A stretch of 60,119 nt of DNA, the filler included, from Sphacelaria rigidula (lineage: Eukaryota): NCBI GenBank assembly GCA_964200075.2. It is 7 parts of 7 records of this genome, joined end to end, with 100 filler letters (N's around TTAATTAATTAA, not from the genome) between each part and the next. Parts side by side here need not be neighbours in the genome. Positions count along the whole stretch, not along the records: positions 43,016 to 51,517 come from CAXNAA020010957.1; 6 more parts are not named here. The stretch is one strand, 5' to 3'. Numbering within the stretch: the first letter of the stretch is position 1; each line of letters opens with the position of its first letter. Positions 1,878 through 51,617 of this stretch are shown here, piece by piece. Under the pieces are notes generated by a model. It ran no database searches. It was not told the origin of the DNA and was given only the letters and a program-made list of their open reading frames with translations. The position numbers and the translations under genes are program-made.

Positions 1878-4748
1878 CAAGGTTCCCCTTCGGGAGGTTG
1901 ATACTGGCCTCCCGGGCGTGACGCGAGTCGAAAATATACTGTTGTAGTGCGATTCCTTTTTCATAATATGGAGGCAATTGTGTGGGAGGATTTGTACCTT
2001 CCAGTAGATACTCGTACTGTCACATTTCGCAGTTTCGAATGTCTCAGACCAAGAGTGGCGGCAAGAGCGGTGGACACTTCCAGCATGAAGAGCTCGCTTC
2101 ACGGGCGGTGTGCGGAGGTGAAAAAAACACCATCACGCACGAGACCCGTCACAGCGCACATCGCAAGTGATTGCTACCGAAATAAGGTCGCGTCCCGGTA
2201 GTACACGGCGAACTCGTGCAGGGTTCTCTAAATGCCGGCCAGACCCCGCGCGCACGGATTTCAAATCACACTTGTATACAGTATATATGCATGATATTGC
2301 TTGCTGTCTGTGTGTACGTGGTATACCACCCCTCGCTCTGCCACATCTAGTACAGCGATCGGTGTCACAGCTAAGTGTGCATTCGCCGTAGGTGGCCTAC
2401 GCAAGAGTAATAGGCCGCTGTAATTCCTGCCTGTATCTTGAGCGGATGGTAACACAGCCGCTATGGCGCGCAAGCCGGCTGTAACAATTCATACCGCGTG
2501 GAGATTTCTACACTGTCTTGAAGTCATACTGCGCGCAGTTCCCACTTTTGTACGAATTTTGTGCACGTTGCAGAAGGCAATAGCTTCCATATTGTGCGCA
2601 GTACATGTTTTTAAATTGTATACTCGCTGTAGAAAGCTCTTGTCTGGGGTGTAATACATTTCCATACATATCAGGCGGTGAAATTGTGAAATAAGCAAAT
2701 AATCCACAGCACATGGCCGAAGTGGCAGTGAGGCAATCACCGAAATATTCGCGTGCAAAGCCTGTGCGGCGGTACTCTAAGTTGTTAACGCTAGAAGAAT
2801 ACCAGTGCAATGGCCATTCCGGCTGCCGGCCTGTGCACGGCCGTCCCGGTAATGTTGGGACTGTCTGTACCGGGATGTCGCCCCCAGTGCCAGGTACGCC
2901 GGCAGGGGTCCGCAGCACTACCCACTGGTCGCGCGACAGGAGCTCAATCTTAGACTGTCGAGATTTTAGAAGCGGAAATGTTCAGCTCCCAACCCTCACA
3001 TATATAGCGGACCATAAACGATGCTTATTTGCTGGGTTTCTTCGAGGGTTCGTCCATAACTGGGCGAAGATAGATGATGAGGCCGGCAGGATCCGTCGTA
3101 GCCTGCGTGATCAACTATCACTGTACCCACTCTATCTACAGTAGCCGTCATCAGACAGCAGGGTGTTGAAAAAACAAAATCCCACGCACCGTGGGTATCC
3201 ACCGTACGTATCAATGCACACTGGGCCATCAGCGACTTCCCCTGCTGCAGCTGTGACTGTGACCCCTTCCTCTAATACCAATCTACACATTCTTCAGTGT
3301 TCTTCACGATGCTTTTTTTGTGGATTGTTACGTTCGCATAATTGGGGCACATATTACGCAGATATGACCGTGTTAGAGGCTTCACGTCAAAACTAAATGA
3401 TAAGGGATCTCAGATCATTCGACTTGTGTTTGCTGCTGACTAAGTCAAGGCAATGTTCAGCTGTTTTCAACTGCTTTGCTCTCATGTTCTCGTGACATTC
3501 GCTGCATAACCACTGTCTTCGTGTTCCCAAATCATCGAGAACGCAAAGAAAATCACGGTGAAAACATACCCCGCCATGAGCGGGCTTTTGTGGCTCTTGT
3601 TTGAAGTTTTCGATCTTGGAAAGGCTTTTGTGGTTCGGGATCGACACCCCGCGAAAAAGAGCCAGTGTGGACGACTTCTGATGGCAAGAACATGCGCCAC
3701 AGGTATCAGATGACACCTAAACTCCAACTGTAATGTACCGCTGACCCTCTTTCGTGCACTGCAAAACAAAGCGCGGGCTAAGATGCCTTGCAGCCAGAGA
3801 ACACTCGGCAAAAGTGGTGAAAAATGCGAAATGATACATGTGCATATATTCGTGAGATTCCCGAGCCAACGGCGGTTACTACGATTTGAAACATGTGAAG
3901 ATTGGGTGAAAATTTGGCTTGAAATTCGTACTTTCAATCTCGGAACAGTTTTACGGGCGCTGATTGGTCGATATACCTTTTCGCCCCTAGCGCTACGACT
4001 GTGGCCTTACACACAAATCCGGCTATGTTACGCTCTTCAGCTGTCCATGGCGGTCAGTATGATATCATGAATACGACTACTGGGTAGGTATTACGGAAGA
4101 TATTTGCTGATGACACAATTTTGGGTGATGGGCGTGAACCAGCCTGTATTGGTTATCGATGTGAGACCCTCCTCGTATGGATTGGGAGCATTACACGGGT
4201 CACTGTATTTGGTGGATACAGTAGTGGAAAGTGCTCACGTGCAAAAATACTGTAAGTCGCACAAGTTTTTCCCCAAGTTGCCTCAATTCCGCCCATATCT
4301 GCGTATCCCACTTGCACAATATCGCACACCTTCTACCGCTTCCCTTGCTCTTGTATGTGTGTAAAAAACATTTGCAAGCGTGAAACTCTCAATAGACGTA
4401 CCGAGTACAAGAGTACCCACGACAACTGCCGGCAACGGGCGTCTCAAGTTCGCACTGCTGTATGCCGACGTGCGCTGCATCGCCACCCAAATTGTAGTCG
4501 ACGCGTCGCTTTGCCCTGCTTTACTGGCCTACCGAGCATCATCTCCTTCGCCTTTATCCTTTTTTCATGGAACGTGTTACTGTATCCCCATATCACCGAT
4601 ATTTCTCGCCGTGATGCCATGCTACATTCATTCTCGCAGTCCCGCCAGTTGGAGAACTCACGGTCACAGCCGGCAGAGCACGTCACACTGGACGGTGCGT
4701 GTGTTTTGAGACAACCGCCATCGACTGTTGTACGGGCCTTGAGCTCGA

Positions 4749-6305
4749 GTGAAGAACGAAGTGTACGGGCCGGAGTTTTGCTCCCTGCACGCCGAGGACG
4801 GGATGGTAAAGATCGTCCGTAGAACGTGCTCCCGTGTGGGCTGCTCCAAGCAGCCGTCGTTTGGGTTGGCGTACGGCAGGAGACCTGAGGTGTGCTCACT
4901 GCACGCCGAGGACGGAATGGTGAATGTGGTCACGAAGAAGTGCTCCCGCGCGGGCTGCTACTTTGTACCGTCGTTCGGGTTGGCGGGGAGCAAAAGGCCG
5001 GAGTTATGCTCCCTGCACGCCGAAGACGAAATGGTGAATGTCAAGGCAAAGACGTGCTCCCACGAGGGCTGCCCCAAGCAACCGTCGTTTGGGTTGGCGG
5101 GGAGCAAAGTGCGGGAGATTTGCTCGCTGCACGCCGAGAAGGGAATGGTGAATCTCAACATCAAGACGTGCTCCCACGAGGGCTGCTCCAAGCGACCGTC
5201 GTTTGGGCTGGCGGGGAGCAAAGTGCGGGAGTTTTGCTTGTTGCACACCCAGAAGGGAATGGTGAATCTCGACGGCAAGACGTGCTCACGGGAGGGCTGC
5301 TCCAAGCGATCGTCGTTTGGGTTGGCGGGGAGCAAAGTGCGGGAGTTTTGCTCGCTGCACACCCAGAAGGGAATGGTGAATCTCAACGCCAAGACGTGCT
5401 CTCGGGAGGGCTGCTCCACGCGATCGTCGTTTGGGCTGGCGGGGGGCAAAAGGCCGGAGTTTTGCTCGCTGCACGCCGAGGATGGAATGGTGAATGTGGT
5501 CACGAAGAAGTGCTCCCATGCGGGCTGCTACTTTGCACCATCGTTCGGGTTGGCGGGCAGCAAAAGGCCGGAGTTTTGCTCCCTGCACGCCGAGGATGGG
5601 GTGGTGGGTCTCAGGGCGAAGTCGTGCTCCCGCGATTACTGCTCCAAGCGGCCGTCGTTTGGGTTGGCGGGGAGCAAAGTGCGGGAGTTTTGCTCGCTGC
5701 ACGCCGAGAAGGGGATGGTGAATCTCGACGTCAAGACGTGCTCCCGCGATGGTTGCTCCAAGCGGCCGCTGTATGGGTTGGCGGGCAGCAAAGTGCGGGA
5801 GTTTTGCCCGCTGCACACCCAGGAGGGAATGGTGAATCCTCACGTCAAGACGTGCTCCCGCGAATACAGCTTGAAGGAGCCGATGTTTGGCTTTGCGGAC
5901 AGTAGAAAGCCGGAGTTCGGCAAGAAGCATGCCAAGCAAGGGATGGTCGACGTCTGTCTCGGGAAATACGTCACATCAGCAGCCCATCGTTCAGAGAAAC
6001 CGGCGAGTCGCTCAGAGGTAGTGAAACTAGAGATTGCTGCGCAACAGTCTGACGGTGAGGAAGGATATGCAATACGGCCACCCATGGGCACGAAGCGCAG
6101 GTCCGAGCAGGCTGTGCATTCAAACAGCAGCACCATTTCAAGGAGAGCTAAGCTAGCCCACACGACTGATGGACTAGTTCCGGCGCAAGTCGCTCGTGGC
6201 GCAATTACCACAAGGATGTTACTGTGCCGGAGTGGAGCAAATGTCAAGCCCGAGGTAACCATTTCACCGTACCCTTCGTCCGTGTCGGCTTCACGTCAGA
6301 AGTAG
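4749..6305 (+). CDS. EsV-1-7 cysteine-rich repeat protein (9 complete 38-aa C-x4-C-x16-C-x2-H units, an N-terminal half unit, a degenerate 10th unit and a basic C-terminal tail)
   Basis: Consensus CSxxGCSKRPSFGLAGSKxxEFCSLHAExGMVNxxxKT matches the EsV-1-7 motif of brown algae and phaeoviruses. First in-frame ATG is 4803; the true start is uncertain. Confidence 0.92.
   Translation: MKNEVYGPEFCSLHAEDGMVKIVRRTCSRVGCSKQPSFGLAYGRRPEVCSLHAEDGMVNVVTKKCSRAGCYFVPSFGLAGSKRPELCSLHAEDEMVNVKAKTCSHEGCPKQPSFGLAGSKVREICSLHAEKGMVNLNIKTCSHEGCSKRPSFGLAGSKVREFCLLHTQKGMVNLDGKTCSREGCSKRSSFGLAGSKVREFCSLHTQKGMVNLNAKTCSREGCSTRSSFGLAGGKRPEFCSLHAEDGMVNVVTKKCSHAGCYFAPSFGLAGSKRPEFCSLHAEDGVVGLRAKSCSRDYCSKRPSFGLAGSKVREFCSLHAEKGMVNLDVKTCSRDGCSKRPLYGLAGSKVREFCPLHTQEGMVNPHVKTCSREYSLKEPMFGFADSRKPEFGKKHAKQGMVDVCLGKYVTSAAHRSEKPASRSEVVKLEIAAQQSDGEEGYAIRPPMGTKRRSEQAVHSNSSTISRRAKLAHTTDGLVPAQVARGAITTRMLLCRSGANVKPEVTISPYPSSVSASRQK
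4827..5966 (+). repeat. 114-bp coding tandem repeat, 10 units
   Basis: Units start with TGCTC at 4827, 4941, 5055, 5169, 5283, 5397, 5511, 5625, 5739, 5853. Confidence 0.97.
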
Positions 6306-8504
6306 TTGGTGCTACTCATGATGAAGGTGCTCGATAATTATGTAGGCAGGTGGTGGTGTGATGTGTCCCTCAACGTCTTGAGTTTCACTGCCATCTAGGG
6401 ATCATTCTGAGCAGGCATCTGAGGAGCACACTAGGCACCCGGGGATCACGCTTTTGTCACGCAGAAACCGGTCTTGTTCCGCGTGATTGGTAACGTATGG
6501 ATATTCTTGCTCAGTTTACTGATTCTCGTGGTGGTGCAGCTTTTCGTTGGTGTTATACGCGAGGGAAGTGCGGGTGTTGCCGTACCTGCCGATGTAAGCA
6601 ACACTCGATCGAACGATCGACGCTTTTTGGGGAGGGTGTGCGAAGGGCAGCATACCACCTACGCCATCAATGATCCTTCATTACACAGCGCATGTTTGGG
6701 GGTGGATATTCCACCGAAGGACACTTGTGTTTTCGCGGGTAAATTTTTACTCTGCCGGGTTCCGTGAGACATATCCATCAAACCGTGAGCAGATGATTTT
6801 CGATGGGGTGCCATTCATGCATCATTGTCGTCGTGACGATGGTGGTGAAACCATGTTTTGCACTTGGCAGGGTAGCGCTCAACCCAGGCGGCCGAGGTTG
6901 ACCCCCAACGCATCTTGCTATCTCCGCTTCAACGGATCCAAGTACGCTATGCGCATTACGCGATTATAAGGTCCAATACGTACTGCTGATAACCGGCCTG
7001 GGAACCGGCGACAGCAGCAGCAGCGACTACGAGGCCGTATGAAGTATGCGATGTTTGAAGGCTTGGGGCAGTGTTCAGAGAAATGTAGGTGGTCGTTTTT
7101 GACGACTGTGAGATACTGGGTTCGTGCGCTTTTTGAGCGCACGAAGGACATGGGCTTGACCCGATTTCAATCGTGATTGACCCGTCCACGAAGTTTTGCT
7201 TATTTACATACATGTACCGTAAGCGAAAACGGGTGATCACAAGCAGATGGTGCTTTTCACGGCAGCAAGATTGTGGGTAGTCCACCAGAGCTTTCTTCAA
7301 GCAAAAAGTGGCCCAACATGACAAAGTGTCTCTCTTGCTTGCCCTGAACTTATTTCCATTCACGAATTTCCGATCTCGACCGTTGTTGGCGTGGACAACA
7401 ATGTTTTCGTGCACCGTAGAAGATTCACGTTGATTTTTTTTGCCTCGTGCAGAACGTCGCGGACAGTGGTAGCGTGGACTGGCCAGAAGCGACGAGGTAT
7501 ACCTTGTCTTGCGCAGACTGCATGGCAACAGCATCACCATGCAGGAGGACTGGTTTTGCGCAGATCCGCGCGCTCCGGTCGAATTTCAGGTATTTGACAT
7601 CTAACATACCAGGGGGTATCTACATGACTGTGTGCTTGGCGCAATCTGTGAAGTTGTTGCTGACGTATGCTTTTTCAGTTGCAAAAGGGTGGACTCGCCA
7701 CTCTTCAGAGTATTGCGAGATCTTGCAGCGGAAATGCCGTTATTGTGATCGTGGCCAACGAAAAACGTGTATACCGAGCACACCCTCGACAATATAAACG
7801 ATAGTGGTCTATTGTCAAATAATAGAGGCGGGGGAAACCTATCGATGTACAGTGTCGAACATGGGAGATCACGTATGTATGAGTGTAATTAACATTAGAA
7901 TACACATGTAAGCCGGAGAAACAGTCTCAGGAACGGGGTTCGCCAGTGGCATACGCAAGCGGACCCGAAACGTTCAAACCTGTGGAACTTGATATTTGGC
8001 AACCTAGGCAACGGGGTCTCCGGTAGAGAGAGCTCAGAACAATAGAGCCACCGCATGAGCCCTGGTTGAACGTCGCCGATACTGCCATACATGCTCGTTA
8101 ACTTCTTCTTGCCTACCATCGGTCGCGGCCACATCCTTGCCTAAATGACAAGAGAGATAACTACGTCTAGCTTTGGAGATCCTTCGGCAGCAGGGTACAA
8201 CAACGTCCTTCGTCGGAACCCGTAACTCTACAGCAGTCGAGACCTAGTCCACACGACGAATGGTGGCATCAACTGCATTTGCGAATGAATTCGGGCACAA
8301 CCTGGCTAAATCGTATCTTTGACTCGAACCGCACGACTCACACTACTTTGGAGATATCTTGAACCGTGCATTTTTCCACAAATGCGACCTGTGGGCCAGC
8401 GCGCAATTTTTTTCAATATTATTCTGCCATTCCATTCAGGCAACGGGTGGCATGAATGTTTCAACATGCTACACATGTAAAATTTTCGTCTCATTATCGG
8501 AACC

Positions 8505-8604
8505 NNNNNNNNNNNNNNNNNNNNNNNNNNNNNNNNNNNNNNNNNNNNTTAATTAATTAANNNNNNNNNNNNNNNNNNNNNNNNNNNNNNNNNNNNNNNN
8601 NNNN
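8505..8604. other. Artificial contig linker N44-TTAATTAATTAA-N44 (also 17108-17207, 25711-25810, 34314-34413, 42916-43015, 51518-51617)
   Basis: Six identical 100-bp spacers whose core gives stops in all six frames, spaced 8602-8603 bp apart. Confidence 0.97.
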
Positions 8605-25710: not shown

Positions 25711-27502
25711 NNNNNNNNNNNNNNNNNNNNNNNNNNNNNNNNNNNNNNNNNNNNTTAATTAATTAANNNNNNNNNNNNNNNNNNNNNNNNNNNNNNNNNN
25801 NNNNNNNNNNGTGTGCAACAAAATCTTGCCGACCCCCGCCAGTTTGCCCAATAACCTGTAGAGATCGCCTCAGATTTTGTTGCACACGGATTTTTGTTCA
25901 GCGGCCAATCTCGAAATCTTGCAGCCAAGCGAAACTGAAACGTGGGCCAGGCTCCTCTCTGTGGGGCGGTGCAAAGCGTCTAACATGTGTGTTGGCGATT
26001 TGCCCTGTTTGGAGGTCGAAAAGTGGCTAAACGCCGCAAAAGTGAACAATCCGTGGGCCAAAAATCTGTGTGCCATAACATCCAGCCTGAAAATGGAAGT
26101 TTGGCCAGAAGTTAAACTGCGGCCAGTGGGCAACGTGAAGTTGCCCTGGGAAGGTCTCAGCGAGTAGGAGAGCAAGCGATAGTCGTTCCAATGCGTCAAC
26201 ATCCGCCTGGCTCTCTTTCGGGCGTAAAACGACGGAGAAGAGCCCGAAAAATGACAACATGTAATGAATGCACAGGATCACCGAGCAGCTGGGAACTCCT
26301 CCCATGTTTGGGATCGTTTTCAACAATGTCGGCCATATTATGAGGCGCTTCGTGAAGTTTGAACCCAGCCATCATAATGATACGTTGTACGGCCATTTTC
26401 TCCCTGACATATGGATTTGGGGCTATGGTTTCGGGAGGGGCTACCATGGCATCACACAGCAGTATTGTAGTGAGTGGCACAAGGAGCGCGTCGTTTATCG
26501 TGTCCCACCACAGTTATTGAAAAGTACTCGTAATGACAAGGGGGCCCACATCGGAACGTCACGGTACCAGGGCCGCCACCCCCCCCCCCCCCCCCCCCCC
26601 CCCCCCAAGGGGGCGGAGAGGGGGAAAGAACACCACCCCACGTCAAAAAAACGACAATATTTCCCCTCTTNNNNNNNNNNCCCCCCCCCCCTCCCCCTCC
26701 CCCCAAGGGGTCGAGAGTGAGGAAATGACCACATCAGCTGTGCAAGAACCGTATTATTCTTCCCGTTTCTCTACAAATATACGGAATTAAACGATCAATC
26801 GCATCACCTAGGGTCCTCCTCGATATGAGCAGCCCAAAACCGAGGATTTTCGGTGGGTCAGTCGTTCGTGTGGTCGTAGGGGAGCAAATTTGACGGCTGG
26901 ATAATGACTTTGAAATCGCGATGACCGCTGAATAATGAGGATGGAGTGCGCTAGCTCCGGCGAGACCGGCGGTCACCGACCTCGTACTTCCGCCAAGCTG
27001 CTGCAGTGGTACGGCCGCCATGCTGGGGAGGGCGGAGTCCGACGAGTACTTTTTGTGCTGCTACCGAATGATATGTAATATTTTGTGCAATATATATTCT
27101 GTGCTTGTTGTGATGTAACCTGACTTCAGGATTACCTACCGGCATGGAAATCTTATGATTTCTATAAATGTAAAGTACAGGATGTGAATTTTAAATGATC
27201 ACGTAGTTTGCCCGCGTTTGAGCAGACAGCGACGTTCATCCATGGTGCATCTCTAGATGTCGTAATCATACTGCACTGCGACACAACACAAGGAGAAGTT
27301 GCGAAGGGAATGTTTTCCTTTTTTTTCTTATTTTCAGTCATTTATTATCATTCATCATTTTTTATTCATTTTTTATTATTTCAGTACATCAAGTACTCTC
27401 GCTATCATCCAACGATCAGTGGAGTACCCCCTACAGAGTTGGGAATCCCCCCCCTCTCCTCCTGCCGTGACATTCCGATGTAGGGCCCCTTGGTAATAGT
27501 AT

Positions 27503-34180: not shown

Positions 34181-35159
34181 CGCGAGGGAGTGATGCTACG
34201 GTAGGGGTGCAGAAATATTTTCTGAGGTTAGAATTGTTAGGAGCCCTTTTTCTCATGCAAAACACGACCTATGGACATATGTGAAAGTACTCCAGGATTA
34301 CTACTCCAATGCGNNNNNNNNNNNNNNNNNNNNNNNNNNNNNNNNNNNNNNNNNNNNTTAATTAATTAANNNNNNNNNNNNNNNNNNNNNNNNNNNNNNN
34401 NNNNNNNNNNNNNCCAAAGATTCGCCGGCGCATCCGCCTGCAAACGTTCATGCAGCCTCTAGGCTGGCCCAGCTCGTAGCGGTTCTTGGGGGAAAAAAAA
34501 CCCATGTCTCCTGAGTGTACTGTTGTACTGTGCTGTCCTGTTCATGTATGACACAACGATTGCCCCGAAGTTCGTCGAAACAGATGATACTCACCCTTCC
34601 ATTGTTGTGGGTTATTGTTGTTGTTGTCTTCACGTTAAAAGCCGCTCCGGCATATGTCCGTTGTCGGTTATTGTTGTTGTTGTCTTCACATTAAAAACCG
34701 CTCCGGCATCTGTCCAGTACTCTGTACTGGGCATCTGATGCGGATGCCTTCCGTGGTCACAGGCTAACTACCCCAAGCTAAGGGAAATTAAAATCATAAA
34801 ATAACATCGGACCCAGAAAAAATCCCGGTAGAGTAAACCGGCATTGGGCTACAAATGTCCATGGTTGATAATTACTTGATTTTTTGAGTGTGTACAACGA
34901 GACTCGCATGTTCAGCAGGGCTGACAGACCCGTGTGTCCCTCGCGCGCGCAGAACGCGCTTTCGTTGACATCGGCGCCACAGGCGCTGATTTGGGGTCTA
35001 CCACGCCTGCGCGTTGTCTAGGGAATGCTATGTACCGCCCTTGCCCGAGGGTTCTCGGTATGAGTTCGGTTGGGGTTAGGGTTACTCGGAGGGGGTAGCG
35101 ATACTTACTTCTGAAATTGTATCAACCATGGACATTTCTAGCCCAACGCCGATTAACTG

Positions 35160-42915: not shown

Positions 42916-44338
42916 NNNNNNNNNNNNNNNNNNNNNNNNNNNNNNNNNNNNNNNNNNNNTTAATTAATTAANNNNNNNNNNNNNNNNNNNNNNNNNNNNN
43001 NNNNNNNNNNNNNNNTCCTACTCCTAATAGAGACACCTCCAACATTCTGGCGCTCATGACTTTCCTTCCGTAGCTCATTACGTTTCACCTTCGTGGGGGG
43101 GGCTATCGTAGAAAGTGTCCCCTCTGGAGTTGACATAAACAGATCCTCTGGAGGGCATCTGATGCTCCAGTGACTTCTGAGGTCTGAATACCCTGTAGGG
43201 GTGTTTCATCCCTCTAGAATAGACATCAACGAATCCTTTGGAGGGCATCTGATGCTCCAGTGAGTACTCCTCGAGTTTTCCGAATCAGTCCGACATATAC
43301 ATGACCATCTCGCTGCTGCTGTGAAATGCATACGCCAGCAATCTTGCGGTATATTATCTCCCGCCGCGTCCACAGACCAAACCATGCAAACCCCGCACAA
43401 CACTTATTTCCAGCTACCACCATAACCCTGCAGGAAAGAGCAGGGGTTAGGCACAGGCGCGGCGGCGGAAGCACGCGGGGTACATAGGGTGCGGGGAATG
43501 ACCAGCTTACTCCCTACACACTCGAGTGATCATGGACAGTTCAGCCATAGACAAAGCTGCGCACGCTGTTCAAGTCATTTGCACGTCTCACTGTGAACAG
43601 AACACAGATATAGTCCCGCGCTGTCTGTACTGTACTTTGTCCGCTTCCCTTTCACGTCTTACTGACGGCGGTTGTGCGCATGCTGCAAGAATACGCGTCG
43701 TGGTCTATACTGCAGTAGCTGACGGTATATGACACCCCCATGCACCCAAAGTTACAGGCATCCACTCTTCATAGCCATACGTAGCCCATATGCCACATTA
43801 TAACTCTGCAGTATATTGCATCGTACGTGTATAAGCACGATATATGGTACTGTCCTGTACGGTATTGTACAGTCTAGTATACAGCACCAAACCGCGTGCT
43901 TATTCTCGTTGTGATCGTCATATCAAAGTACATGCATGAAAAAAAAGTTTTGCGGTTTTCATTCTGTTCGCATACCATGGACTACGGGGTTTTGAGAACC
44001 TATATCAATACAATAGCGAGGCATTTCTACTCAGTGCACCATATACCCACTGGCTAAAGCTGTATAGCGCGGCCGTGTGAACATGCAGCCGTATGTGGGA
44101 CTTGAACAGCAGAGGCTGCTCGCAAATAAGTCTTTCTTTTGCCCAATTACAGGATAAAACAATGGGCAACAGGAATATTTTTTTCGGACAGATTTTGCTT
44201 CACAGATTCCACCCACCAGTGTATATGGGATTTGTACAGCCTATGCTGTTCGAAATAAATCCTTTGCTTTATGCCCGACGTTGGGCATGAAGGATTTATT
44301 TCGAACAGCAGAGGTTGTCCAAATTGCGTTTTCCATAG

Positions 44339-44590
44339 GAGTGATGCTACGGTAGGGTTGCACTTTTTGTTTCTGGGTCTCGTTTTTGTAGGAGCTCAAA
44401 TATATGGAGTTTACTGTGCAACCCAAATCTCCGGGGACAGGACATGGAGATGCACACAGGGATCTTTTCGTGAATCGGCATCATTTTCAGTCTTTTCCAA
44501 GTGAAAATGATGCCGGTTCTGAAAATGATCCGTGCAACACCCCGAGAAACATTTTCGCTCAAAATGTGCAACCCTACCGTAGCATCACTC
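44339..44590. mobile_element. Sola2-like MITE; another end at about 34188-34215
   Basis: TIR GAGTGATGCTACGGTAGGGTTGCAC, GAG..CTC termini, 4-bp TSD ATAG. Confidence 0.8.
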
Positions 44591-45316
44591 ATAGCATGCG
44601 CGTGCCTTACAAAACAATCCAAACGATTTCGATACTGACGCAGACCTTCGAGGGAGACCCCAACCTTGAGAACCCTCTAGAGGATTACAAATGCCCAATA
44701 TCCTCTGGAGGGCATTTTAAAAACGGACGCTAGGTAGGGTTTCGTTTTCCAAAATCCTCTACAGGTAGCCGAATGGCCGAGTGTGTAGTTTCGGTAAAGA
44801 TTCGAGTACTACTAACTGATCGCGGAAATCGCGGCGGCGGCGTAAGTGACCAGGGCGGTCAGAACGATGTAGTAAATCATCGTGGACGAAAAATTTGCTC
44901 ATACTCGATTTCGATTGTTGGGCTGGGACAGGAGCTGGGTTAGGCTCGAGAAGATATTCCAAATATTGATTGAGTTCATTTTCTGTTGTTCGAGTAATAT
45001 CACTGAATCAACAGTAGGAAAAACAGATACTGCACTCGAAAATAATTCACAGTCGCTTCCCACGGGTACTATATCGTCTAAGTTATAGGCGGATACTTCG
45101 TATTCTCTAGGTGCAGGGGGATGAAATGTTGTATTTTCTGGTACATTCCGACAGATTGCTGCTAACCTAGATTCAGAAGATATTTCTTGGCCGTTTACTT
45201 CTTTGAAAAGAGGAGACAGTGAGTCGGGTACGATATTCAATTTTCCTGGGACATGCTTGACAGTGAAATCGAAATTGTGAAGTGCGATAGCCCAACGTGT
45301 CAACATGTTAGATGTA

Positions 45317-45609
45317 CACGGGTGGCCACTGGGATCTGTAACCTGGCCATTTTGGTACCTTATCCACCTTTGGTAAGATCCGCGGATTAGGTGGACAACT
45401 GAAGAGCATTCGCACAGCATGGACAGGTTCGAAACAAAGCGTGTTCCAGTCTACGGGGGAGTCACCCGCCTATAGACTGGGACATGATTTGTTTTGAACC
45501 TGTCCATGCTGTGCGAATGCTCTTCAGTTGTCTACCCAATCCGCGAACCTTACTAAAGGTGGATAAGGTCTCAAAATGGCCAGGTTACAGACCCCAGTGG
45601 CCACCCGTG
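45317..45609. mobile_element. Foldback MITE (about 137-bp arms, TA TSD) inside the gypsy RNase H
   Basis: CACGGGTGGCCACTGGG...CCCAGTGGCCACCCGTG; removing it and one TA restores MQDTSNMLTRW. Confidence 0.93.
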
Positions 45610-47492
45610 TATCTTGCATGTTATACAAGTATGTAAGAGGTTGATGGTCTGTATGACACGTGACATTTTGACCCCACAAATATGGTCTCCAGTGTACAAA
45701 AGAGCAGACAACAGCAAGACATTTTTTTATAGTTGGGCTGTAATGGCGTTGGCTTTTAGAAACGCGTTCGCTATAATACCCCACTATATCGATTTCTTTA
45801 CCGTCGACACTATCCTTGCGTGGCTGAGCTAAAAAACCGCCTACGCCAATGTCGGAAGAATCGGTATGAACTACAAATTCTCTCGAAAAATCAGGAAAGG
45901 GTAGGACAGGGACAGAAGCTAGCACTTGTTTAATTTTCGTAGAGGCTGCGTCTTGTGCTGTACCCCAAGCTCTCTTAAAATTTCTTTCAGGGGCAAATTC
46001 TTTGCGAGTTAGATCAACGAGTGGTGCTGTGATGTCAGCATAATCTTTGACAAACGCCGGACAAAATTGTGCATGCCCAAAACTGATCTGAGATCTTTGA
46101 TGCATGTTGGCGTGGGCAGCTTTTGGGTGGCTCCTATGCGATTGTTGCTGGCATAAACTTCTTTCGCAGAAATAATGTGTCCGAAGTTATTCAATTACTT
46201 TCTATCCGAATTGAATTCTCGATGGTTTTAGAGTCAAGCCTACTGCTTGAAGGACTGAAATTTTTTTATCCAATGATTGAAGATGATTTTCAAATGTGGA
46301 ACTGATACAAATTAAATCATCCATGTATGACAGAACACCAGATTCGGGGCCAAGATGACCCAGAGCCATTGACATCATATGTTGGAAAGCCAAGGTGGAT
46401 TGCATACTCCAAAAGGCATACGCTTAAAACAGTACTTGCCGTTTGGTGTGACGAATGCAGTCCGGTCTACATGTTCTTCGGCCACTGGAATTCGTCAGAT
46501 TGCGCTGAGGACATCGCATGCAGTAATGTATACAGCTTCACCCACTGCGCCAAGGCAAGATTCAAGATTTGGCATGGGTCAACTCTTGCGGACAATATGG
46601 CGGTTAAGAGTGTGACGATAATCGACGCAGAACCGTGGACTACCATTGTGTTTAGCTACAATGGTAGATGGGCTACCCCACGAGCTTGGTCTTTTTTCAT
46701 TAATATCCCAATCCAGCATTTCCTTGACACATTTGTCAATTACTGCGGAAGCACGTGGGTTCGGGCGATGAAGAGGTCTGTCTACAGGACGAGTATCAGG
46801 GGGGAGAGGAAAAGTTGCCTCTGTAATAGTACAACGACCTAATTCTGACATAGACATAAAAAAACCAGGTCGAAATTTAGCACACAAATTTAGAGCAGAC
46901 GCCTGTTGGTCGGTGGTACGCGTTGTCGTTGAAAGTGCTTTGGATAAAGGACCTTACAGTTCTGATCTTGCATGCTTGACTTCTTGGGCTGTCTGTGGAG
47001 TTCTGACGACTGCACTGACATTGATTTGTTTTGGAGTTGTGACTGTAACTGTGAACAGGAGTCCGAGACATAGTCCTGCATGCAGAGCTACATCATCTGT
47101 AGATGGGTTGGCTATTTGTACAGTTACAGACCTATCCGATGCTCTCCACGTAGAGAGAGTGCGGGCTATCACAATATTCTCGAATGGTATCAGTTGTGGG
47201 CCATTTGAAAATGCATCCTCAGTTATTATTCGCGGCTCGATTAGTACTGTACAGTCTTCAGGTGGAAGATAATCTGTAAACCTACTGCAAGAGCTTCGTG
47301 CATTTGTTTTAAATTTACACGTTCACACAGAGTAACCTTAATTGCCTCAGCATTGCCATTGACGGTAGCTACAGATTTCGAGGAGAAATTTGGTGCTGTA
47401 GGATAGGCACTAGTGTGACGTTGTGTAGCAGTATTTTCGCCATGAATAGCTGGGATTGACAGACCCGTTGATGTGAAAGAAAGTGTTTGATT

Positions 47493-47690
47493 AGAGAGTT
47501 TCGGAAAACGCTTTTTGTCATTTCAGAGTGCAAAAATTTCAGGATCAGAGCGCAAAATAAAAAAAACAGATCACCGAAAAAAATTGAGGCGGTACCGCAT
47601 TTGACGGAGGGGGAAATAATTTATCGCTACAATCTGATTTTGCGATATTTGCACTCTAAAATGACAAAAAAGCGTTTTCCGAAACTCTAT
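47493..47690. mobile_element. MITE (about 42-bp TIR, 3-bp TSD ATT) at the end of the gypsy protease region
   Basis: AGAGTTTCGGAAAACGCTTTTTGTCATT / AATGACAAAAAAGCGTTTTCCGAAACTCT; removal restores FGAILNWGNQTLSF. Confidence 0.88.
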
Positions 47691-49721
47691 ATTTCCCCAA
47701 TTTAATATTGCTCCAAATTCAGACATGACTTGGTTGTCTAGAAGTATAGAATCAGGTCCAAGTGATGCAACAGCAAGTGCGGTAACTGTACGAGTGACTC
47801 CACCTAGAGTCAGAGAAAACTCGATGAAGCCTAAAACATTCATTCATTGGTGAACCGTCCGCTGCGCTCAATGAAAAAGCAGCAGTTGCAACAGGTTTGA
47901 GTGGCATGTTTCGCATTGTACGGTGGGTTCTCAGCCATCCTAGTGAAACAATAGACACGTCAGTAGCAATGTCGATAGTCACGTCATCAACGTGACGGTC
48001 ATCGACGTATTCGGCAACACGGACACGTCGTGACGAAAAAGAGAGAGATACAGATTTGGGTTTATGGATCAGCGAAGATTTGAACCAAATTTTTTCATTA
48101 TGTTTATTTTCCTTCGTACACACTTTTTCTGCTTGAAAACACTCCCGACTTTGCCTACTGATAGACTCAAGTAATCTGCCGGGAAAAGCTACACGCTTCA
48201 GCGATTTACAAACCGTAGTTGTGGAAACATCAACGGTATTTTCTAACGAAGGGACACTCAAATCATGTACTCTTTTGACTCCTCTCTTTGTATCCTGCGT
48301 ACAGTCACGAACACAAGGTATGACATACTGTTGATTTCGAACACGAACACGGGGCACAACTGAAAAACTGGTGCCAACTGCTACTGACGTGGAGAGGGAC
48401 TTTGTCCTCTTCACGTCTTTCCTGTGTGAATCAGGAGACAACCCAACTATATCGGACGCCACAACAGCTGGGCAACACCATTCACCTTCGCTACCTGTAC
48501 TATCTTTATTATTAGACACAGGACGCTTAGCTGAACTATTCGCTCTCTTGTTCTTGTTCTGTTGCAGCTGCTGTTGTTGGAGTTCATACCGTTGCCTCTT
48601 AAAACACAGTTCTTGTGCAGTGCGGGCGCCCCTTCCGTTCTTCTTCGCTAGAAGAAGTAGGTTGGTCATTGTGGTTGGCTTTCGCTTTTACTTTGAAAGA
48701 TTGGTGGCGTTGGTTGTTCTTCTTATGGTAGGCGTTATAACCCTTTGAAGCAGCATCATCAGCGAGGTGTCGTTGAGCAAATGCGCAGCGGTTGGGTATG
48801 TGTGTGAATGATAATGCATTGGTTGTGGCACCATCGACGAGAATAGCAGCCTCGTGGCGTCTAGCACGATCTACAGCCTCACGGAAAGAGGTGACCGGCT
48901 TTTCTGACAGTTGAAGGCATTGAACGGCTGGTGCGAGGCCATTTTGCCACGAAATGACAGAGATGGCAGCCCAGGGCGTGCGGCCAGGGGTTGCTCTATC
49001 AACAGATCTCTCGACACGTGTCAAGACAGAACGAAAACGAAGAGCGTAGTTTTGGACAGATTCCTTTTTTTCCATCTTGAACGAAGCGAGACGAAGAGCG
49101 CACTCTTCGACACTGTTACTAGGCATCAAAGTATCTAGTACAGCATTCTACAGTTCTTTCCAGTTGGAAGGGGGAGTAAACGAACCGGCTGTATCATTGG
49201 TGTCGATGTCTATGACAGATGTCTGTCAATTGATGCATCCCGACATTACTTGTTGATACATTGTGACAGCTGGACCATCCAAAATAAGACTGAAATACTC
49301 AACAGCGAGTTGGTCAGCATATTCTGGGTCCTTTGGTCTGACAGATTGAGCGCGAAATCCTGCAACCGTGCGATATTGATTTAGTACAGACTGTACACCT
49401 ACATCGCTCGCATTGTCAATATCTATACTACCAGATAATCGAGGCAAGCGTTTAACATCTGCTTGAGTCAATGTGACAGTTTTCGGTCTGGACAGTATTT
49501 TAGGATAGGACAACTGCTGGACAAAATTCTCGGTTGTGCCTGAGGGCGCCGAAATTGATGATACACTAGAATTACTATGTCTACTGGACGCGGTTAGACT
49601 TGCCAGTGTGTTCATTATTTGCAGTCCCCATTCCGGGATGTCCTCTCCCGGCCCGCGGCTGTCCAGGAGATCATTCAGCTTGGTTTGCAGTTTTTCGATG
49701 GTCATCTGCATGTTCGTGTAG

Positions 49722-50858
49722 ACTCTAGTCACGAATGTTACCTAAGGTTGGGGACATTGTGTACGTGGAGGTGCGGGCCTGATTGCCGGACTCTGTGATG
49801 GGTGGCCTCCTTGACGAGAGAGCCCGGCTTTGCTGCTCTGGTAGAGAGAGGCTATGGTCCTGTTCTCCTGTACTATGCTAAGGGCTAATATATGAATAAC
49901 TGAAGCTGTTGAAGACCATGTGCCCGTGATGGGAGGAGTCCACACGGCAATCTGATCTTGAGTGACAGAAGTCTATAATGAACGTTCATGAAGTCCGCTG
50001 ATGGCGGTAGTTCCGCTGAAAAGCAGCTGACATTTCAAGATAGGGAAATCTGCAGGCCTGATCAGTTTGCAGCAAACAAGACCAGCTCAAGGCGAGTTAA
50101 CGTCGCGAGGAGTTGGAGAAGTAGAGCCGAGGAGGTTCTGAGGCAGTGCTAGGGTGGGCTGTGGTATCGCTCGTGCGAGAGGTGCGGGGGGTTGACCGAC
50201 AGCTGGCGAGCCCGTGTACGTGCCAGAAAAGCGGCGGAATTACTGTCTGGTGGAGCCAGCGAGAGTTGCTTGTTCCACGCGTGGCCAGGTACGGTCAGGA
50301 AAAGGAGTCTAAGGACTTCAAACACGTGGTGAGACTTGCGTAAGGAAGAGGCGCTGTGGCTATTGTCGTTTGGTGGCCAAGAGCGTCTTGGTGTAAGGAG
50401 AGAGTTGTTGTTCCTGTGAGTGGGAGGCGACTCCGTTTTTAAAAAAGGCGGTGTTGAGTGCTGTACTGCTGACCGTAATGTACGAGGTGCAGGAGTATGT
50501 CGCGGTGGACAGCCATGTTGTCCTATCAGGCACCAATGATGTCTGAGTTTGTCAAGCTTTGATGTAACTACTTATTGGTAGTAGAGAGCTTTGGGGGTGC
50601 TGTTAACTCTAGTCACCATTGTTACCTAAGGTTGGGGACATTGTGTACGTGGAGGTGCGGGCCTGATTGCCGGACTCTGTGATGGTTGGCCTCCTTGACG
50701 AGAGAGCCCGGTTTTGCTACTCTGGTAGAGAGAGGCTATGGTCCTGTTCTCCTGTACTATGCTGAGGGCTAATATATGAATAACTGAAGCTGCTGAAGTC
50801 CATGTGCCCATGATGGGAGGAGTCCACACGGCAATCTGATCTTGAGTGACAGAAGTCT
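49722..50858. repeat. 253-bp direct duplication (49722-49974, 50606-50858) flanking a 631-bp insert
   Basis: Near-identical copies, about nine substitutions by eye. Confidence 0.92.
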
Positions 50859-51055
50859 GTTTTCGTCGTCGTTGATGAGGACGTTTCCGATGGAGTAGAA
50901 GGAGTGTTCTGCTTTTTTTCTTCAGTACCTCTTTCGACAGTGGAATTCGAGTCGACGTTGTTGGATACGTCAACATTTTCACTCGTAGGCATGTTTTATT
51001 CAAGATCAGATCCTCAGATCGTGCAGACTGACAAGACAGGTTCGATTCTAAAGTA

Positions 51056-51067
51056 CCGTCGAAGCCA
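51056..51067 (-). promoter_or_regulatory. Putative primer-binding site TGGCTTCGACGG
   Basis: TGG-initiated motif about 75 bp upstream of the presumed gag ATG (50992); complement ends ...CGTCGAAGCCA. Confidence 0.6.
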
Positions 51068-51090
51068 ATAAGAGTCGTATACGGTTAGAA

Positions 51091-51178
51091 GGCCGACGAA
51101 GGGATTTGAACCCTTCCTTACACTCTCTGCGAAACGCAAGCGAAACGCAAAGTGCTCTTCCAGTTAAGCTACGTCAGT
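51091..51178 (-). ncRNA. tRNA-like cloverleaf inside the presumed gypsy LTR (Pol III A and B boxes; 11-nt duplication in the anticodon arm)
   Basis: Acceptor ACTGACG/CGTCGGC; D-arm GCTT..GAGC with TAGCTTAACTGG; T-arm AAGGG-TTCAAAT-CCCTT; anticodon stem CTTTG/CAGAG. Confidence 0.7.
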
Positions 51179-51617
51179 AGCGTTGAGTGAACAGGACAGA
51201 GCTCGAGTGAGTTTGACAGACAGGGTGAAGGGGGGGAGAAGAAGAGTGGTTGTGATTGTTGTGTGATGAGGTGAGGATGATCTGTGATCTATCCATGCAG
51301 CTCATCTCAGACAGAAGAACATGGATCAAGGGACCATGTACCGACAGACATTAGCCTGGAGTTCAGTTCAACGTGTAGATCACCTTGGGTTTGGTGTGTA
51401 CAACGTTCTATGGCTCTTGGGCATATTCGGTCTGATATTGTCCTGATATCTCTTTGAACAGCACTCCAGACAGTAGATCTATTTTGGGATTGGTCTCTGT
51501 TCTATGCGACAGTTTCGNNNNNNNNNNNNNNNNNNNNNNNNNNNNNNNNNNNNNNNNNNNNTTAATTAATTAANNNNNNNNNNNNNNNNNNNNNNNNNNN
51601 NNNNNNNNNNNNNNNNN

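Follow-up and report, generated by a model that had tools for sequence, protein, structure and literature searches.

A tRNA relic in the probable long terminal repeat of a Ty3/gypsy family from the stramenopile alga Sphacelaria rigidula

A tRNA-derived cloverleaf on the minus strand of a Sphacelaria rigidula contig probably represents a family-wide relic borne by a long terminal repeat (LTR), as far as its structure and distribution are concerned. In this reading, an old, low-copy Ty3/gypsy family would have inherited the cloverleaf as a component of its 5′ LTR; the cloverleaf would be neither a tRNA gene nor a private insertion of the copy at hand. The stretch of DNA analysed, here called the window, comprises 60,119 bases and consists of seven unrelated chunks of ~8.5 kb, which are joined by N44-TTAATTAATTAA-N44 linkers (8505-8604, 17108-17207, 25711-25810, 34314-34413, 42916-43015 and 51518-51617); features are not readable across these joints. 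The cloverleaf is located in chunk 6 (43016-51517), 339 bases from the chunk end, and the context of the LTR is cut 70 nt beyond its 5′ edge. The features of the element are compiled in Table 1.

The segment at 51091-51178 is a genuine tRNA-derived sequence, yet a relic and not a working tRNA gene. The Rfam tRNA model RF00005 matches exactly these coordinates on the minus strand and is covered completely (model positions 1-71 of 71), with 31.8 bits at a gathering score of 29. The E-value amounts to 0.0096 for the 60-kb window and 4227 families, and to 8e-05 in a 501-base search; no other Rfam match in the window attains gathering level (1 of 1). The minimum-energy structure predicted by RNAfold is a four-arm cloverleaf of -27.6 kcal/mol, the fold energy of which is ordinary (z = -1.47, equalled in 17 of 200 shuffles). 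The acceptor stem contains an A:C mismatch (1-72) and a U:G pair (3-70). An initial annotation, made from the sequence alone, had described a tRNA-like cloverleaf with four pairing arms, an 11-nt duplication and a non-canonical anticodon loop, followed by neither a SINE body nor a tail. All of these features were recovered, and the duplication is exact (51129-51139 equals 51140-51150). The same annotation considered the A and B boxes intact, which is true of their loose forms, TAGCTTAACTGG for the A box (tRNA positions 8-19) and GGTTCAAATCC for the B box (position 67), whereas the strict consensus patterns find no match within the cloverleaf.

The segment is classified as a relic rather than a tRNA gene because of the 11-nt duplication in its anticodon arm, the non-canonical loop and the absence of a T-run terminator. 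No Pol III terminator is present near the 3′ end of the cloverleaf, the nearest run of at least four T being located 732 nt downstream, and the 3′ end does not encode CCA. Hence, of the hallmarks of a functional tRNA the segment displays the score and the full cloverleaf; it lacks a 7-nt loop with U33 and a purine at position 37, an anticodon arm of standard length and a terminator. ARAGORN at default settings reports no tRNA gene at the cloverleaf. With introns allowed, the program calls one tRNA, “Ala(cgc)”, at the cloverleaf coordinates by means of a 15-nt “intron” at the non-canonical position 30/31; the isotype “Ala” was rejected, since it hinges on an impossible intron. A 21-base string of the D arm recurs exactly in six metagenome contigs from other organisms, in four of which it lies inside a tRNA called by ARAGORN (Thr-GGT, Arg-GCG, Arg-TCT and one of unknown type) and in two of which it lies outside; none of the six loci found in this metagenome scan is a member of the LTR family. 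The cloverleaf of the copy described here is dead, since the 11-nt duplication is accompanied by a CpG-to-TpG change in its acceptor stem, and the host element is broken.

Table 1. Features of the cloverleaf-bearing element and its surroundings (window coordinates)
Feature	Position	Strand	Basis
Flank: end of a very abundant unrelated repeat abutting the 5′ edge of the LTR	51448-51517		Jump in contig depth
Putative 5′ LTR, ~379 nt, of a decayed Ty3/gypsy element	51069-51447	-	3′ edge by homology to L007; 5′ edge by contig ends at 51443-51449
tRNA-derived cloverleaf	51091-51178	-	LTR positions ~270-357 of 379; Rfam tRNA, RNAfold, box motifs
Exact 11-nt tandem duplication in the anticodon arm	51129-51150	-	Two copies, 100% identical
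Primer-binding site TGGCTTCGACGG, slightly decayed counterpart of TGGCGTCGAATCGG in L007	51056-51067	-	Alignment with L007
gag start: ATG at 50992, then 43 open low-complexity codons	50862-50992	-	Open frame, phase; layout
Nested LTR-type element (1144 nt) from a very abundant family, interrupting gag	49718-50861	-	Terminal direct repeats, ACGAA flanks
Rest of gag, two frames	48599-49717	-	gag relatives, tblastn
pol (protease, reverse transcriptase, RNase H, N-terminal integrase), several frames, cut off	44786-48402	-	Alignment with P0008
292-nt palindromic MITE-like insertion in pol	45316-45607		Alignments on both sides join at P0008 residue 883

Read along the minus strand, the element follows the order flank repeat, LTR (51447-51069), a single T, primer-binding site (PBS, from 51067), a 75-nt leader and the gag start codon at 50992. 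The cloverleaf falls within the last 110 bases of the 5′ LTR, 22 nt of which still follow it. This 22-nt trailer and the single T precede the TGG at 51067, which agrees with the distance of 23 nt between cloverleaf and PBS given in the initial annotation. The 3′ edge of the LTR was defined by comparison with an apparently intact relative, L007, a 7292-nt contig with a single gag-pol frame that runs from 3018 to 7292 and continues at 1-1152, and with ends that overlap by 51 nt. The overlap indicates that L007 is a collapsed assembly of one LTR plus the internal region, closed to a circle across the LTR. The contig, whose gag-pol frame spans ~1800 codons, is filed in a bacterial metagenome-assembled genome (MAG) labelled as an alphaproteobacterium, where it almost certainly represents algal contamination. 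The MAG in question contains no copy of the window LTR (best E 0.235).

In L007, the LTR ends with CA at 2964, followed by one T, the PBS TGGCGTCGAATCGG and a gag ATG 70 nt after the TGG; the corresponding distance in the window is 75 nt. Positions 51069-51035 of the window align with 2964-3007 of L007 such that 33 of 35 window bases are identical, with four small gaps. The score of this alignment against the whole of L007 was reached by 3 of 200 shuffles, and its best placement is the exact LTR/PBS junction. An alternative MAFFT placement, in which the L007 PBS faces the acceptor strand of the cloverleaf, was rejected, given a local score of 17 versus 33 for the PBS-to-PBS alignment. Some 20-30 nt past the PBS, both elements share a conserved leader motif, GAACCTGTC (51035-51045 in the window, 2997-3007 in L007), the GAACC of which is complementary to the GGTTC of the tRNA T loop. 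In analogy to Ty1 and Ty3, the primer tRNA could be contacted a second time through this motif. A G73 discriminator, along with the paired acceptor of TTCGACG type, would point to tRNA-Asp as the primer that fits the PBS.

On its 5′ side, the LTR is delimited by the listed contigs, which cease to match at 51443-51449, where a different and very abundant repeat starts. At 51448 the contig depth, a sum that does not equate to copy number and to which other organisms may contribute, rises from ~1e3 to ~4e5, and loose ends “before 51448” were found in four of four runs. The repeat at 51448-51517, with a summed depth of ~4e5 in three runs, differs before 51448 in its other copies, and no copy of it was found elsewhere in the window.

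There is no second copy of 51038-51447 within the 60-kb window and hence no LTR pair in this copy, in which two direct LTRs with target-site duplications are not seen; the element is cut at 44786. A checkable 3′ LTR is missing because pol is broken and the element is cut off at this position. The PBS directly after the 5′ LTR is established by homology to the L007 junction. The window LTR does not have TG...CA ends, and its end reads TA. The 18 short inverted pairs detected around the ~380-nt LTR include no convincing terminal inverted repeats, nor was a convincing target duplication seen, and a scan for sigma-70 promoters and intrinsic terminators, which is not designed for eukaryotes, gave 0 and 0. 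The status as an LTR therefore relies on where the segment lies, on the homology of its PBS junction and on the cover by contigs, since no second LTR is available. Together these data support the placement of the cloverleaf inside a 5′ LTR at 51447-51069 that heads a Ty3/gypsy element with gag and pol. The earlier assignment of the cloverleaf to a gypsy LTR accordingly stands with respect to the 5′ LTR, based on the L007 junction and on contigs bridging it, whereas a paired 3′ LTR is not demonstrable, as the 3′ end is lost.

The cloverleaf appears to be confined to the family of the window element, because the LTR of L007, the one relative in which it is readable, is devoid of a tRNA-like part: the 1.9-kb non-coding region of L007 yielded 0 Rfam matches at E<=1 and 0 ARAGORN calls at relaxed settings. 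No similarity was detectable between the L007 LTR and the window LTR (scores reached by 16 of 200 and 49 of 200 shuffles), and the pol DNA of the two elements is 67-72% identical. The cloverleaf module was therefore either gained in the line of the window family or lost in that of L007.

The host element is recognizable as Ty3/gypsy by the order of gag followed by reverse transcriptase, RNase H and integrase, the core of the latter missing in this copy. Its best pol relative, P0008 (1533 aa, 72% identical), comprises RVT, RNase H, integrase zinc-finger and rve domains. Residues 4-1059 of P0008 are collinear with 48402-44786, and because residues 1060-1533 find no match, the integrase core is missing together with all downstream parts, including the 3′ LTR. 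The pol open reading frame matches RT_RNaseH_2 (E 5.7e-26). Ten of 284 candidates were longer relatives at E<=0.001, and three of the ten are named Ectocarpus sp. (54-65% identity). Viral contigs contained no relatives of P0008. The palindromic insertion in pol matches itself in inverted orientation (45302-45622, 87%). It also yields a sub-threshold Rfam match to the plant miRNA precursor MIR847 (50.6 bits at a cut-off of 184), which surely reflects just the hairpin.

The gag gene is supported by 59 relatives at E<=0.001 for the open reading frame 49226-49741 in an exhaustive search, and tblastn of gag relatives spans 49798-48614. Its 44 N-terminal residues show no significant match among 76 relatives, so that the argument for this part is one of layout, owing to the lack of sequence homology; the gag proteins of the relatives likewise place ~33-88 low-complexity residues ahead of the conserved block. 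The upstream frame from the ATG at 50992 and the conserved gag frame past the nested element share one phase. The nested element is bounded by terminal direct repeats of ~253-260 nt (96% identical) around ~630 nt, and it is flanked in the same codon phase by the 5-nt duplication ACGAA (50866-50862 and 49717-49713). Its family reaches a summed contig depth of 1e4-6e5 over 50300-50873, compared to ~30-75 for single contigs. Relative to most copies, the nested element harbours an internal breakpoint at 50522, and elsewhere the repeat occurs in tandem at one locus with a period of 265. The abundant 253-nt repeat was also considered as the true LTR, with TGGTGACTAGAG as the PBS. This assignment was rejected, as TGGTGACTAGAG lies inside both direct repeats; it is ruled out as well by the presence of ACGAA on both sides in one phase and by L007, which places the PBS at 51067.

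Further copies of the LTR were surveyed in Logan contigs from three studies (four runs, labelled “algae metagenome” or with a coded organism) at a likeness of at least 80%. Public contigs of the same organism contain many diverged copies of the ~380-nt LTR together with the cloverleaf. Among the listed records, X2-12, X2-13, X4-19 and X6-29 carry the cloverleaf plus upstream LTR sequence, with 8-20 differences each and a divergence of ~10%. Two more contigs, X1-6 (50887-51115, 26 differences) and X4-18 (50862-51115, 29 differences), bridge the T arm, the trailer, the PBS and the gag start. The cloverleaf is thus not limited to this copy, which bears on the proviso attached to the initial annotation, and its T arm is continuous with PBS and gag start in two diverged contigs. 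The match of X2-12 ends exactly at 51069 while the contig continues, as would be the behaviour of a solo or 3′ LTR. A family-specific gapped pattern gave 0 matches in viral contigs and 0 in genome contigs.

Since summed contig depth is no copy number, only the shape of the cover curve and the bridging contigs were used. The total cover, which may include other organisms, amounts at 51084, 51065, 51048 and 50917-50972 to 5019, 530, 241 and 97 in X1, to 5920, 870, 551 and 172 in X2, and to 1073, 256, 172 and 38 in X4; it drops about tenfold from 51084 to 51065 in the three data sets, and its peak at the T arm (51079-51119) is perhaps inflated by real tRNA genes. The number of distinct contigs with a listed variant declines in parallel from 19-28 to 6-7 and 1-2.

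The same curve might be taken to mean that the ~380-nt repeat is an independent tRNA-bearing repeat, be it a Helenus-type TRIM, a solo LTR or a SINE-bearing unit, which replaces or abuts the true LTR upstream of the PBS. We regard this explanation as unlikely. The cover of the repeat exceeds that of the gag start ~25-190-fold (again in depth, not in copies), but an excess of solo LTRs explains such a ratio. The repeat has no partner in the window and does not resemble the LTR of L007; however, at a pol identity of 67-72% LTRs have normally diverged beyond recognition. Moreover, its motifs fit the description of Helenus given by Kojima (TRGCY...YGG and GGTTC; PMC10886601). Against an independent repeat, the 3′ limit of the ~380-nt unit falls no more than 17 nt from the position that corresponds to the final LTR base of L007, and the alignment makes the two coincide; in addition, T arm, PBS and gag start occur together in the two diverged contigs. 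A tRNA-derived SINE as such is not in evidence either, as the upstream LTR sequence is common to other copies (X2-12, X2-13 and X4-19) and no tail is present.

Another explanation that the layout renders extremely improbable is that the cloverleaf represents a real or recently dead host tRNA gene, which lies outside the element and served as a Ty3-like integration target. Certain gypsy elements do target Pol III genes (PMC5911963). Yet, the 22 nt to the PBS leave no room for an LTR, 270 nt upstream are repeated along with the cloverleaf in other copies, the anticodon loop is non-canonical and no terminator follows for 732 nt.

As an inherited component of the LTR, the cloverleaf is not uniform between copies. 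At 51176, most other copies (94% of the depth in X1, 11 contigs) specify C:G at pair 3-70, where the window copy has U:G, a difference due to CpG-to-TpG decay in the latter. Some copies are devoid of 4 nt beside the T stem, and one rearranged copy (joint from 51114 to 51280) contains a single 11-mer and the loop CUAUUCG, which still is no standard anticodon loop. The differences listed include a single change on one side of a stem and no two-sided compensatory changes in the cloverleaf. Breaks at 51087 and 51115 recur in the contigs of many copies, which points to a T arm and a B box that are the same in a large number of them.

Such conservation, along with the position of the cloverleaf, might reflect a role at the RNA level. 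According to this proposal, the cloverleaf would act within R-U5 as a tRNA mimic in the recruitment of a synthetase or the primer, in packaging or in cutting by RNase P/Z, and the tRNA-like element near the HIV-1 PBS as well as mascRNA processing provide analogues. The cloverleaf is indeed found 23 nt from the PBS, and the T arm forms a shared node of the contigs of many copies, the listed records starting at 51087 or ending at 51115, in agreement with high conservation. We nevertheless consider a role of this kind quite unlikely: a cut by RNase P/Z in the 5′ leader would separate the cap and R from the body of the RNA, conservation is lowest in the anticodon arm (with a duplication in this copy and a different loop in another), and L007 manages a homologous PBS without any cloverleaf.

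The initial annotation also proposed that the cloverleaf supplies its own primer, the 3′ end annealing to the PBS and priming reverse transcription. The two sites are close to each other, and a CGTCG/CGACG core is common to the acceptor stem and the PBS. Nonetheless, the predicted duplex between them reaches -10.8 kcal/mol, a value matched by 59 of 500 shuffles, CCA is not encoded, and the PBS is homologous to that of the cloverleaf-less L007. Helenus elements are likewise free of such complementarity in Kojima's account (PMC10886601). Self-priming is thus very improbable.

The preferred reading, an LTR-borne relic shared by the family, calls for an origin by capture. In this scenario, a tRNA-derived retro-sequence, e.g., the head of a SINE, a tRNA pseudogene or the product of a template switch onto a tRNA, would have entered an ancestral LTR. 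The captured sequence would then have been copied with the LTR through the ordinary, Pol II-based cycle of the element. A capture is envisaged because of the models put forward for Cassandra and Helenus (PMC10886601), and a tRNA-derived SINE is a likely source. tRNA-derived SINEs (SINE2) resemble the cloverleaf in having a tRNA-related head, A and B boxes and many interspersed copies. In contrast to the cloverleaf, which is preceded by 270 nt common to other copies and followed by neither a body nor an A-rich or LINE-derived tail, the head of a SINE2 is situated at the 5′ end of the unit.

Regarding function, two possibilities appear about equally probable, each of them tentative. Judged by the retained A and B boxes, and as proposed for Helenus TRIMs, each LTR copy could constitute a TFIIIC/Pol III unit that gives rise to short transcripts of ~0.5 kb or marks chromatin; alternatively, the cloverleaf could be a silent passenger. 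A Pol III promoter for the full-length genomic RNA, which had been among the initial suggestions, is disfavoured because the sense strand of gag-pol contains 34 runs of at least four T in 4936 nt (shuffle mean 18.9), the first of which, at 49526, would end the transcript after ~0.5 kb. A more far-reaching and rather improbable idea is that the LTR of a gag-pol Ty3/gypsy lineage in a stramenopile alga still contains a functional Pol III/TFIIIC module, which would make this lineage an autonomous progenitor of TRIMp3 elements.

The system most similar to the window LTR is Helenus (TRIMp3), described by Kojima in 2024. This article (PMC10886601) portrays TRIMs of 311-1263 bp with tRNA-like parts in LTRs of up to 323 bp, found in fungi, animals and Selaginella. 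Similar to the window LTR, that of Helenus includes a tRNA-derived part with a box A core (TRGCY...YGG) and a box B (GGTTC) that is not a functional tRNA; a PBS matching the 3′ end of a tRNA follows the LTR, as in the window element, with no complementarity between the tRNA part and the PBS; and the LTR copies outnumber the internal parts, as in the window family. In contrast, Helenus elements as depicted there are non-coding and smaller than ~1.3 kb in total, whereas the window LTR of ~379 nt heads a PBS, gag and pol; short derivatives of it were not observed, though the genome may contain some. Moreover, Table 1 of the article does not list Helenus from stramenopiles. According to the same article, “not a few” Repbase LTRs show partial similarity to tRNA, just TRIMs below 1000 bp were pursued, and the role of the tRNA parts in recruiting TFIIIC/Pol III is proposed, not shown. 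Autonomous partners, it is argued there, necessarily rely on Pol II promoters and are not expected to have the same LTR.

A second comparison concerns cqgypsy_1 of Culex quinquefasciatus, a member of the Osvaldo lineage (Marsano et al. 2012), in which two perfect, CCA-ended tRNAs are situated at the LTR/PBS border, as set out in PMC3286476. Like the window element, cqgypsy_1 is of the autonomous gypsy type and contains tRNA sequence where 5′ LTR and PBS meet, and its relatives lack the tRNA part yet share the stretch of LTR end and PBS, as L007 does here. The same article reports a Lys and a Glu tRNA, which replace the PBS with 149 bp, are flanked by a 26-nt LTR duplication and were detected as a single copy. 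In the window element, by contrast, a single decayed cloverleaf without CCA lies 22 nt within the LTR, the PBS is normal, and the feature occurs in many diverged copies.

Cassandra TRIMs, finally, contain a 5S-derived Pol III promoter in both LTRs; they are non-autonomous, occur in land plants, and their transcription by Pol III has been shown, as summarized in PMC10886601. They have in common with the window LTR that sequence going back to a small-RNA gene is found within the LTR, though theirs is 5S-derived, and the window element gives no Rfam match to 5S. The background given in the initial annotation, in which the known LTRs bearing small RNAs were those of non-autonomous elements such as Cassandra, was incomplete, as it lacked the Helenus TRIMs of 2024 and the Culex gypsy element of 2012. 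In the openly accessible literature (subscription journals and Repbase lie outside this scope), we found neither a gag-pol element with a whole LTR cloverleaf common to many copies nor a Helenus-type element in stramenopiles.

Small-RNA-gene relics in LTRs, namely those of Cassandra, Helenus and Ajax, belong to miniature non-coding elements, and their origin has been attributed to a SINE landing in a TRIM. A gag-pol gypsy family with a whole LTR cloverleaf, found outside of fungi, animals and plants, would show that autonomous elements can carry such modules and could be the source of the miniature ones. If the module indeed worked, any derivative with an internal deletion would immediately become a Helenus-type TRIM driven by Pol III, which would open a route to TRIMp3 other than a SINE landing in a TRIM, and some of the large excess of LTR over gag copies would consist of such derivatives. 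On a practical level, cloverleaf-bearing LTR copies would inflate tRNA gene predictions in algal genomes, and solo LTRs would scatter potential TFIIIC/Pol III sites, one with each.

Elsewhere in the window, chunk 1 contains a 114-nt tandem repeat at 4768-5863 (9.6 copies, 81% matches) inside an open frame of 520 codons, which could encode a repeat protein of 38-residue units or could be a minisatellite.
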